Origin: Eledone cirrhosa
Lineage: Eukaryota
Direction of reading: 5' to 3'
NCBI GenBank assembly: GCA_964016885.1
Contig: OZ024740.1
Location: forward strand, 180,668,001 to 180,732,000
Length of the DNA stretch: 64,000 nt
The notes below the pieces were generated by a model, which made no database searches, had not been told where the DNA came from, and was given only the letters and a program-made list of their open reading frames with translations. The position numbers were made by a program, and so were the translations under genes. Below are positions 52,672 through 59,410 of this stretch, piece after piece (the stretch's first letter is position 1; the number at the start of each line of letters is the position of its first letter).

Positions 52672-54546
52672 TATGAATATAAATATGAATATATATATGT
52701 TTGTGTCCGTGTATATGTGTAGGTGTGTATTCATTTGATCACAGATACTGGACAGAAGGAACTATGTAACGTTATGACTATGTTATGCTGTTATATGCTC
52801 TAAGACGCTTATAAAACCCGTATGTTGTGTTCAGAATATTGATTTCTTAAGCACTCCTTTATTCATGAAGTATAAAGGTAGATGGCATCTCTTTGTTCTC
52901 TTTAGCCCAACATATAATTAATTATTATATTCGAAGATGGAGCTGCAATATTTGACTTCACAAGACTCTCATTAATATATATTGGTAATGTGTTTGCTAC
53001 GAATGTTGTGAATTGTTGTGTGTGGTTATGCGAGCGCACATCATATATGTTTTCACTTATGTTTCATTTAGTAATTAAAGTAAAAGAATATACTTAATGG
53101 AAATGGATAGCACAGGAAAAAATGAAAATATCGCCACTTCAAAAACTAATACTTGTTTGAGTCATAATTAATTGAATCTATGGCAAATATTTATTTTTGA
53201 TATTGCTTCTTGCATGAATTCTTGCAGTTTACAAAGGGAAATGAATATTAAAATACATACAAATAAATATTTATGAACTGGTATACATTTTATGTTTACG
53301 AATAATATATGTATTATTCGAAGGGTGGAAATGGAAGGGTGGTATGTTGAGCTTGCTACAGAGTTTTCTCTTGGTTTTAACTTGTACTAAACAGTTGTAG
53401 TCTCTCCTAATCGCCTGTTCAGTTAATTCTTCTTGACTCATTTGTATTCAACACACTATAGGTAGACAAATCGTTCTTTAGCAAATCGACCACACCATTA
53501 TCTGTCATGGGAATTATTATTATTCATCAACATGATATCCTCAAATTTATTTTCCTCATTATATAAGAATAAAAATATATTAAAAATAAAACTGGACGCA
53601 ATGGTTTTGTACGTCGGTCCAATAAGCCTGGTATGAGAAAGTAGTCTGAATAGTTAATATTTACGTATGTTCGTTTGTGTTGCATGGTTTATTTAGAGTT
53701 AGAATAACAAAATACGTAGAAACTATATAATATTTATTTTGAAACGTAGCATATATCATATTAAACAGCTTGCTTATTGTAGAAGGATAGAAGTTTCATA
53801 GAGTGCAATATTTAATTAATTGACAGTGCTCGGGATTTAATGGAATGTAATACGTTTTCGGTTCAGAGGTTTCTATGGTGCCTTCACGCCTGGATCAACT
53901 TCGTCATTCATCCTCTTCTGTTCGATAAAGCACATTTCAGACGTGAGTGCTGGAGTGGCGGAAGTGCAAAATTTTCCGGAATTTTCCACGGATCTCTCGT
54001 CGTAATATTGTCGTTTCATGACTGGAAACTGATTACATAAAATATTTGGCACCATAATTATCAAACCAACAAGAAAATTCCATGGAAGTCACTCTATAAA
54101 AGAATGGCTGGATATATTCAGGGGAAAGCTGTATCAACAAGAAATGCAATATGTCACTCCTTCCTCTGTATATCACTCCATATACTGTCCCATCTTTCTC
54201 TTACTCTCTCTTTAATTCTTTCTCACTCTCTCACACTCTTTCTGTAATTAAATAATTTTTTAAGAAATTTATGTATTCTAAAAGTCTAGTCGATGAGACC
54301 TAATACTATCGACTGGAATATAAATACTTATATAATGTTACCTGCCTTATACAATAAATACACTATACATCGTTACATACCTAGCCACATATAGGCACAC
54401 GTGTATATATATAGAGAGAGAGACATATGTATGTACGTCTTTATGTGTATGTCTTCATATATATATATGGTACGAATACGGATTTAATTATAAATAAAAT
54501 AAAATAACAGGAGGATCGACTGGTGTAAATCCTGGAAAAGTTTATT

Positions 54547-54604
54547 ATACTATGATTATTTCAATGACCGGGTTCCATATGAATCCGATGATATCATCAG
54601 GTAT
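54547..54604 (-). ncRNA. Hammerhead (1.88-kb family, copy 1; stem III mutated)
   Basis: Reverse complement of 59294-59351 with substitutions. Confidence 0.7.
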
Positions 54605-56423
54605 TGGAATATAACAAAGGAATATGTAAAAAACCATGGGTCCGAAAAATCAGAGACAGAGACAAAGAGGACGACTGACCAACTAGCCGCCCTTATCTCG
54701 GCCAGTCGCCCTCAAAGTGGTGGCAACTGAATAATACTAATGAACATCTGGTGAAGGGGCGAAGGCTTATAATGCACTACCATATCTCCGTCAAAGAAAA
54801 AGGGGAAGAAAGAAAGAAAGGGAGAAAGAAGTCAACGTGAGGATCACACTACATTCATGCTAGAAAATGCCGCGAAAAAATGCTACTCCAAAGAATCTAT
54901 AATGGGAGTTTGTATGGTATCATGTGTCAACCGAAGATTGGAACGTTCAACTTATGTTGCGAGTTATGGGATGAAATTAAATTAAATTAAAAATATTAAA
55001 TTGCAAAATGATAAATTGAAAAATAAGTTATTAGAAAATTAAAGGTTATGGTAGTGAGATTTATTTAATGAACTTACGGAGAGAGACTTATATGAAAAAA
55101 TGTATCTCGATAAGATATTAGGAGGGGATATAGAGTAAAGATTTCGATTGCTAGTCCCAGCCAGCACCTCCCACCATGAGTCAGCCAGTCGCGAGTGGTA
55201 TCGTCCAGCGAAAGAAATGGAAATTAATATTTCGGAGTACTCTAGGAACGTAGCTACATTAGGCTCCGGGAGCGCTAGCGAGAACTCCATAATTTCGACA
55301 GGCCATCGTCTATACCATACGAATATTATTAAATCACACATGAGGGGTTTATTTACGTGCCATTAGAGGCATGATTCAGCTAATAGTTATGCCTAAATCT
55401 GGAGTTTATAGCTATAAGTGATATGGCGGCCAAAACAGGCGGTGCGGTGGGACCGGGGCGAAGCAAGTCGCTTCGAGTAATTTCATTTACCGAAAGAGGA
55501 AAAATGTATTTTTCCGAGCACTCAAGGAAGGTTCAACTTTCCGAGTGACAGTCGGGAAAAGCCACCACACAAGTCGAAGGTAGCAACCGAATGAAAAGTG
55601 CAAATATACCAAAATTATTTTAAAGTCCCAGTTAGTCCGGGTTATAAGTAGTGTTGTTCTTAGGTGGGTAGGGGGCTATGAAAGGTGCTTAATGACCTGA
55701 GTAAGGAAAGTTACAAAAAAATAATAAAAGCAGAATACAAAGATCAAATACAAATATAAAGATAGAATACATTGATAAAAATACATTAATCAAATAATTA
55801 AAAAATATATATATATTAATAAATAATAAAAAAATTAATAAAGGTAAATAACAATCGATATAGATCAAGTTGTAGTACGATAATACAGGTTGTACATATA
55901 GATATAGAGGATGGAGGAGATGGAATGGTAACAGGTTGTACCTAGTGTAAAGTTCGGGTCTCCGAATTCAGTGTGTCACAACACGTCCTGAGGTATAGAG
56001 TAGAGAATTCAGTCAATGCTTTAGTATAATACGTAGAGTTTTGTCGGAATCGGAATCAGCTCGACGAGGAAGTAGTGTCATGTGGCGGTAGATAAAGCAC
56101 AGAGCAGCCAAAATCCGAATGGTAAGTAGACCAGTTAATCCCATGCTAGCAATAGGTGTACACTGAAGTCAGTGTCGCTGTTTAATATTACATTTTAAAT
56201 GCTCAACATTATTGGAGCATTATTTCTTTAGGTTTGTTGCTTCACCATGGATAGAACTGGTCATTCTGTAGGGTCAATCCTGTTGTAATATTGTTAAGAG
56301 TACTCAATGCAGTGCAGTTCACCCATCTTCGTTTGTGTAGTTGGTGGTGCAAATACGGAGTTAATTATAAATAAAATAAAATAACAGGAGGCTGGACTGG
56401 TGTAGATCCTTGAAAGGTTTATT

Positions 56424-56481
56424 ATACTATGATCATTTCAATGTCCGAGTTCCATATGAATCCGGTGATATCATCAGGTAT
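56424..56481 (-). ncRNA. Hammerhead (1.88-kb family, copy 2)
   Basis: ATAC-CTGATGA...GAAA-TGATCA-TA-GTAT on the minus strand. Confidence 0.8.
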
Positions 56482-58313: not shown

Positions 58314-58371
58314 ATACTATGATCATTTCAATGACCGGGTTCCATATGAATCCGGTGATATCATCAGGTAT
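58314..58371 (-). ncRNA. Hammerhead (1.88-kb family, copy 3)
   Basis: Same as 59294-59351 in reverse complement. Confidence 0.85.
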
Positions 58372-59293
58372 TGGAATATAATAAAGGAATATGTACAAAA
58401 ACATGGGTCCGAAAAATCAGAGACAGAGACAAGAGGACGACTGAACAACTAGCCGCCCTCAAAGTGGTGGCAACTGAATCTACTAATGAACATCTGGTGA
58501 GGGGCGAAGGCTTATAATGCACTACCACATCTCCGTCAAAGAAAAAGGGGAAGAAAGAAAGACGGAGAAACAAGTCAGCGTAAGGGTCACTCTACATTCA
58601 TGCTAGAAAATGCCGCGAAAAAATGCTACTCCAAGAATCTATAATGGGTGTCTGTATGGTATAATGTGTCAACCGAAGATTGGAACGTTCAACTTATGTT
58701 GCGAATTATAGGATGAAATTAAATTAAATTAAAAATATTAAATTTCAAAATGATAAATTGAAAAATAAATTATTAGAAAATTAAAGGTTAAGGTAGCGAG
58801 ATTTATTTAATGAACTTACGGAGAGAGTCTTATATGAAAAAAATTATCTACATAAGATATTAGGATGGGATATAGAGTAAAGATTTTAATTTATCATTTT
58901 GCAATTTAATATTTTTAATTTAATTTAATTTCATCCTATAACTCGCAACATAAGTTTAACGTTCCAATCTTCGGTTCACACATTAGACCATACAGACCCC
59001 TATTATAGATTCTTTGGGGTAGCATTTTTTCGCGGCATTTTGTAGCATGAATGTAGTGTGACCCTTACGCTGACTTCTTTCCCCCTATCTTTCTTCCCCT
59101 TTTTCTTTGACGGAGAGGTGGTAGTGCATTATAAGCCTTCGCCCCCTCGCCAGATGTTCATTAGTAGATTCAGTTGCCACCACTTTGAGGGCAACTGGCC
59201 GAGATAAGGGCGGCTATTGGTCAGTCGTCCTCTTTGTCTCTTTCTCTGATTTTTCGGACCCATGGTTTTTTACTTATCCTTTTTTATATTCCA

Positions 59294-59351
59294 ATACCTG
59301 ATGATATCACCGGATTCATATGGAACCCGGTCATTGAAATGATCATAGTAT
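59294..59351 (+). ncRNA. Hammerhead (1.88-kb family, inverted arm)
   Basis: ATAC-CTGATGA-tATcACCGG...CCGGTcATt-GAAA-TGATCA-TA-GTAT. Stem III is the palindrome ATGATCAT, triplet AUA. Confidence 0.85.
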
Positions 59352-59410
59352 AATAAACTTTTCAAGGATTTACACCAGTCCAGCCTCCTGTTATTTCATT
59401 TTATTTATAT

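Follow-up and report, generated by a model that had tools for sequence, protein, structure and literature searches.

What kind of element consists of long tandem units that each carry a hammerhead motif and no coding frame, and whose enzymes does it use for its movement? The question is raised by a locus at positions 54468-59409 of the window, i.e., of the whole analysed stretch of 64,000 nucleotides from Eledone cirrhosa (contig OZ024740.1, assembly GCA_964016885.1). The locus is identified here as a large non-autonomous Penelope-like element (PLE), retrozyme-like in outline: a multicopy, protein-free retroelement of considerable length, which likely (at a probability of roughly 0.8) borrows the reverse transcriptase (RT) and endonuclease of a Neptune-like Penelope element. 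As in non-LTR retrozymes, coding capacity is absent and the tandem units have one type I hammerhead each, while the unit size, 1877-1890 nt at this locus and about 1.9-2.9 kb in the lineage, is outside that of the retrozymes described in the sources cited here. The dispersed 5'-truncated, partial-tandem and inverted insertions, with two 3' ends at microsatellites, are those of a non-autonomous PLE.

Architecture of the locus and its hammerhead motifs

Self-comparison of the sequence resolved three units in direct orientation on the minus strand (54468-58886), followed by an inverted arm on the plus strand (58884-59409), which amounts to 2.3 head-to-tail units plus the inverted arm. Four type I hammerhead cores (CUGAUGA) are present at 58367, 56477 and 54600 on the minus strand and at 59298 on the plus strand, belonging to motif 3 (58307-58392), motif 2 (56417-56502), motif 1 (54540-54625, with the stem III loop variant UAAUC) and motif 4 inside the inverted arm, respectively. 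Cleavage is predicted after 58318, 56428 and 54551 on the minus strand and after 59347 on the plus strand, giving two full monomers without an ORF, one of 1890 nt (56428-58317) and another, of subfamily A, of 1877 nt (54551-56427); this agrees with the hammerhead spacing of 1877 and 1890 bp in the first-pass annotation. The partial third unit reported there was found as a 5'-truncated copy (58318-58886; consensus positions 1310-1895). The inverted arm comprises consensus positions 1433-1895 plus +1 to +62 past the cleavage site and does carry the fourth hammerhead, but the common 3' end postulated for the two arms had to be abandoned: the tail of the direct arm (54468-54550) runs to +83 before a short TA run, thus ending 21 nt away from the +62 point and extending the locus to 54468 instead of 54484. 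At its 3' end the inverted arm abuts a (TA)n-rich microsatellite (59410-59516), which is the likely insertion target.

A conserved tail of the minus strand, +1 to +208 (58110-58317), contains both family-wide 3' end points, +62 at 58256 and +208 at 58110. Just beyond the latter lies a GCTC...GAGC hairpin motif (58088-58109, minus strand), whose position is common to both Neptune-like elements of the window. An internally duplicated module richer in GC and CpG (approximately 57020-57440, minus strand) is a candidate internal promoter. The longest stop-free frame within 54468-59409 has 107 aa, and the two full units of the locus differ by 5.4%, which excludes an assembly duplication.

Rfam gave no hammerhead match at the locus even at E<=10, so the assignment rests on the core, stem I (AUAC/GUAU), stem III and conservation. 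Stem III is short with a palindromic loop, and stem II is closed by a U.U pair instead of the usual G-C, the G10.1-C11.1 pair being absent. The core was intact in 37 of 46 motifs, and no part of the unit is better conserved than the hammerhead, with 82-94% three-way identity among subfamilies A, B and C. The minimum-energy fold of all four motifs is an inactive rod, the active fold being predicted at about -1 versus -15 kcal/mol for the inactive one. A possible loop I-loop II pairing was found as UUCCA/UGGAA in 80 and as UUUCG/CGGAA in 32 of 153 motifs, and may represent covariation between A and C, amounting to one or two events, with B breaking one pair. The hammerhead is probably weak alone and assisted by dimerization or by protein. 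The published account of PLE hammerheads stresses the conserved G-C and describes low in vitro activity of the metazoan ones (PMC4209133). Mismatched stem II closing pairs were frequent in other hammerhead-like motifs of the fetched loci, and the flanks of loci L001-L140 contained many further distinct PLE-type hammerhead motifs, whose closing pairs were often non-Watson-Crick.

Family size, subfamilies and absence of a coding frame

The copy search covered the source genome (3.0 Gb). The monomer produced 107 matches from 40 scored of 3,143 candidates, the hammerhead-core pattern had 4,781 exact matches genome-wide (0 for the reversed control pattern), and the tail motif had 1,120 matches. The objection that the locus could be single-copy is thereby removed, the copies being dispersed. 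The 30 fetched loci were 5'-truncated, partial-tandem or inverted and adjoined (TA)n, and arms longer than 300 nt deviated by 1.9-5.9% from the consensus, which for subfamily A has 1895 nt and no frame above 109 aa. In public contigs the hammerhead depth was much higher and a different upstream sequence recurred; subfamily B (510 exact motif matches; unit about 2.09 kb) was recognised in this way, while subfamily C, with units of 1981 and 1987 nt, was uncovered by the core pattern. The dispersed lineage comprises at least four subfamilies, and the family is present in contigs from three public runs of one sample. A search of a plasmid collection gave no match to the element.

Subfamilies A, B and C are colinear at 76-78% identity. 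Their indels come in multiples of three in only 10/45, 8/46 and 10/34 cases, and the longest frames in consensus B and C have 97 and 121 aa. In tblastn, consensus A against 14 PLE/LINE translations from the window gave nothing better than E=0.22, and the full 719-aa Neptune-like protein as the query had no match in the family. A decayed ORF, the other foreseen objection, was rejected on the grounds of the missing tblastn matches to the window PLE/LINE proteins and of the missing frame conservation, and the earlier impression that RT and endonuclease are absent was correct. An autonomous PLE was likewise rejected, the RT plus GIY-YIG ORF being found neither in the unit nor in the consensus or the extended copies, as was a tRNA-derived SINE (ARAGORN was blank on consensus A and B and Rfam had no notable match). 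At L101 and L215 the element seemed to adjoin Neptune-like ORFs, but TA tracts and other sequence lie in between, and these apparent chimeras were dismissed.

A motif running from the distal 3' end on into the following unit had 216 matches, and the first 30 of them were taken as an unbiased sample of long copies. Downstream of the junction, a PLE protein match was found in 0 of these 30, which answers, for this sample, the question of attachment to an RT ORF that the first-pass annotation had posed. Twelve of the 30 were extended and had units of about 1918-2080 nt (four copies) or 2362-2909 nt (eight copies), the longer ones apparently lengthened through internal duplication; the unit range of the lineage is thus about 1.9-2.9 kb. 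Frames did not exceed 136 aa in the 11 extended copies measured. The absence of a downstream ORF and the short frames indicate that the propagating entity is the ORF-less unit. On the other side, within 400 nt upstream of hammerhead-bearing arms, a retroelement protein match occurred in only 2/268 cases, neither of them recurrent. Most genomic copies are fragments smaller than one unit.

Insertion anatomy and Penelope-like elements of the window

Among 260 arms, 108 ended at +45-70 (102 beside TA runs) and 103 at +190-215 (97 beside TA runs), so that 199/211 arms ending at either fixed point adjoined TA runs; of the remainder, 27 ran on and 22 stopped elsewhere. Two-armed insertions mostly combined one +62 end with one +208 end, and we infer that these end points are reverse-transcription start sites. 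An RCTC sequence was noticed post hoc within about 10 nt past the end points against a background of 5-8.5% per position, and an RCTC...GAGY motif, also noticed post hoc, is located beyond the end points in the element and in both Neptune-like families, where the local alignment around it did not rise above shuffles. At the first site one Nep2 copy has GTTC and the other window copy GCTC. In vitro, the Poseidon PLE uses two internal RT start sites, which yields a genomic tail, and hammerhead cleavage is dispensable (PMC11167929). The two-end pattern matches Poseidon reverse transcription, with a longer tail.

The 5' ends gave no comparable role to the ribozyme. Long arms obtained with the junction-spanning query were continuous across the cleavage site in 24/25 cases (23 loci) and tail-selected arms in 25/26, so a linear monomer released by cleavage does not usually serve as the template. 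Arms starting within 3 nt of the site made up 6/334, perhaps twice the neighbouring rate, and so some cleaved templates may exist. An initial impression of clustered, hammerhead-defined 5' ends fell to 1/25 and 6/334 and was given up: the insertion ends are set by something other than the ribozyme.

Several further regularities were observed. The 5' breaks of L017, L232, L233, L235, L236, L238 and L239 cluster at consensus A positions of about 1006-1026, directly before a CCGCCATA motif, which we take to be YY1-like, and after a GC-rich stretch, in a sampling that is partly biased; a transcription start or an RT stall are candidate causes. Separate insertions L004, L054 and L152 begin at one T-run (consensus A 1354-1358) with expanded poly-T upstream, possibly from RT slippage. 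In L021, L023, L153, L208, L216 and others, another repeat has inserted repeatedly at the same ATTAT sites within the family, at A556 and 66 nt before the cleavage site.

Two autonomous elements of the window are presumed to be Neptune-like from their motifs rather than from a tree. One, on the plus strand at 4800-8370, has a 1.4-kb 3' UTR and a hammerhead at 8201; its family is young and abundant, with intact frames of 716-719 aa elsewhere and a tandem unit of 3687 nt in L248, and it is a candidate helper. The other (19916-26385) has 1.86-kb pLTRs and an inverted arm of 413 bp, and its hammerhead-like motif shows the core variant CCGAAGA near 21934 and 26134. Both resemble the ORF-less element in layout: the hammerhead-like motif has a long stem II and a mismatched closing pair, there are two 3' ends, and the flanks are (TA)n. 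The 3' end pairs of the two families are +35/+115 and +45/+210, and Pfam gave no match to either protein. A blastn comparison of the unit with these two families, which are two of many (59,326 first-look candidates), revealed no similarity. The proposal that the unit derives from the pLTR of the 19.9-26.4 kb element was therefore dropped: besides the blank blastn, the best local alignments were at shuffle level (30 versus a shuffle mean of 29.8; 53 versus a mean of 45 and a maximum of 66), and the size match is a coincidence because the units range from 1.9 to 2.9 kb.

The window also has a 422-bp tandem repeat (16848-18010) with minimal hammerhead-like motifs at 17137, 17559 and 18010, which is a retrozyme-like array of ordinary size, and two minus-strand hammerhead motifs with a long stem II, 485 bp apart (31892 and 32377), which are another small retrozyme-like family. 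An inverted PLE fragment with a GIY-YIG domain (Pfam match) and minimal hammerheads is located at 29133-31733, a second PLE-type RT remnant at 46484-48432 and several LINE copies at 35.8-51.8 kb. The whole-window repeat search was dominated by microsatellites.

Template, rival explanations and significance

The template RNA would exceed one unit, either as an uncut read-through of a partial tandem or as a ligated circle. A helper protein would bind this RNA at a signal just 3' of +62 and +208, (TA)n DNA would be nicked, and cDNA synthesis would begin within the RNA, with one of the two sites serving one arm and in many cases the second site serving the inverted arm. The insertion ends would not be set by the hammerhead, and DNA-level processes may have extended or homogenised the 2.3-unit array once it was inserted.

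Since the arms read over the point of cleavage and misfolding is predicted for the single motif, release of a 1.9-kb circle is no more than a possibility, and the DNA fits an uncut tandem transcript as well as a circle. A sub-case of the main reading makes the circle the main template: the hammerheads cut the tandem RNA, a 1.9-kb circle is ligated and the RT rolls round it. The continuity of cDNAs over the cleavage site, the superior conservation of the hammerhead and the loop I-loop II pairing that possibly changes on both sides between subfamilies speak for it, as do the circles formed by small animal retrozymes (PMC7229834) and the private variants common to arms within a locus (1.69 versus 0.27 per 100 nt; 34 versus 3,051 pairs). 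The two full units of our locus have 26 non-consensus variants in common in 1744 nt, whereas other loci share <=0.5 per 100 nt with them, a pattern which would fit one template. However, of three informative private variants seen in the direct units, two are missing from the inverted arm, the direct units share their variants in an incongruent pattern, and L150, with two 100% identical units and a 5% divergent tail, demonstrates that DNA-level duplication happens; the 2.3-mer is therefore no proof of rolling-circle copying. The circular consensus, whose folding had been recommended, was not notably stable (-417 versus -396 +/- 15 for 12 shuffles; 53% paired), all four motifs fold into the inactive rod without G10.1-C11.1, and the covariation comes down to one or two events with one pair broken in B. 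We consider the circle as the main template unlikely. Slightly more doubtful still is a broader version, an old and diversifying lineage of 2-3 kb non-coding circular RNA, at least as large as a deltavirus genome, which would combine assisted hammerhead cleavage and ligation with copying by a Neptune-like RT through a short hairpin signal instead of a shared 3' sequence.

The unit might otherwise be the pLTR or 3' UTR of an undiscovered autonomous Penelope-like family, with the ORF-less tandems as by-products. The Neptune-like 3' UTRs of the window are similar in size (1.4-1.7 kb) and the copies examined are samples; against this, an ORF continuation occurred in none of the 30 unbiased junction-spanning copies and in no long copy of any subfamily, and colinear ORF-less units persist through 22-24% divergence, making this origin improbable. 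A local satellite, segmental duplication or assembly artefact has in its favor the suggested DNA-level exchange among the direct units, but as an account of the family it is refuted by the thousands of copies, which are scattered over many contigs and have ends typical of retrotransposition, in addition to the 5.4% divergence of the units and the presence in three public runs of one sample, and it is highly improbable altogether. The large, ORF-less, non-autonomous nature proposed at first sight is upheld, and the element is multicopy, with a Penelope-like insertion anatomy across the family.

Compared to the metazoan non-LTR retrozymes, as far as described in the sources cited here, the element similarly has ORF-less head-to-tail units with one type I hammerhead per unit, a weak palindromic stem III, a GC content <45% and a proposed PLE dependence or pLTR origin, the latter also proposed for retrozymes in bioRxiv 10.64898/2026.07.22.740005. 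In contrast, published units are <1 kb (about 300 bp in animals, PMC7229834; 51-972 bp in a survey with the tandem-repeat period capped at 1000 bp, bioRxiv 10.64898/2026.07.22.740005), i.e., its 1.9-2.9 kb are about 2-3 times longer; instead of forming arrays, most of its copies lie dispersed, with 5' truncation and inversion, and its hammerhead is non-canonical. With the EN+ Neptune-like PLEs as described (PMC8557442, PMC11167929, PMC4209133), it has in common the 5' truncation, partial tandems and inverted 5' arm, a 3' tail that is optional because RT can start at two sites, insertion at microsatellites and a hammerhead of long stem II close to the 3' end; it differs by the absence of an ORF, by a tail of 146 nt versus the described 30-40 bp and in that homology to the two autonomous families compared could not be detected. 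Chlamydomonas is known to have non-autonomous PLEs (PMC8557442), and the Chlamys elements, such as MRC1, also have pLTRs and head-to-tail insertions (PMC8557442, bioRxiv 10.1101/2022.06.16.496473). This algal clade, according to these accounts, is mostly without canonical hammerheads and generally shares its 3' sequence with an autonomous partner, in contrast to our element, for which no such partner was found among the two families compared. The concept is thus known, while the literature searched contained no report of such a family, be it for its size, for dispersed insertions of Penelope type or for its depth of several subfamilies; an earlier entry, in Repbase/Dfam, a subscription journal or supplementary tables, is possible.

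With this family, the size of hammerhead retroelements that encode no protein rises from <1 kb to almost 3 kb, and units of 1.9-2.9 kb would escape a tandem-repeat screen capped at 1 kb. The family behaves as ordinary Penelope-type insertions, tying retrozymes to PLEs by mechanism and not by co-occurrence. Because the lineage has no ORF, the parts conserved across its subfamilies are candidate cis signals for PLE mobilisation, namely the hammerhead, the +1 to +215 tail, the RCTC...GAGY hairpins and the GC-rich module. Two questions are thus made testable: how a PLE protein chooses its RNA and what purpose the hammerhead has.
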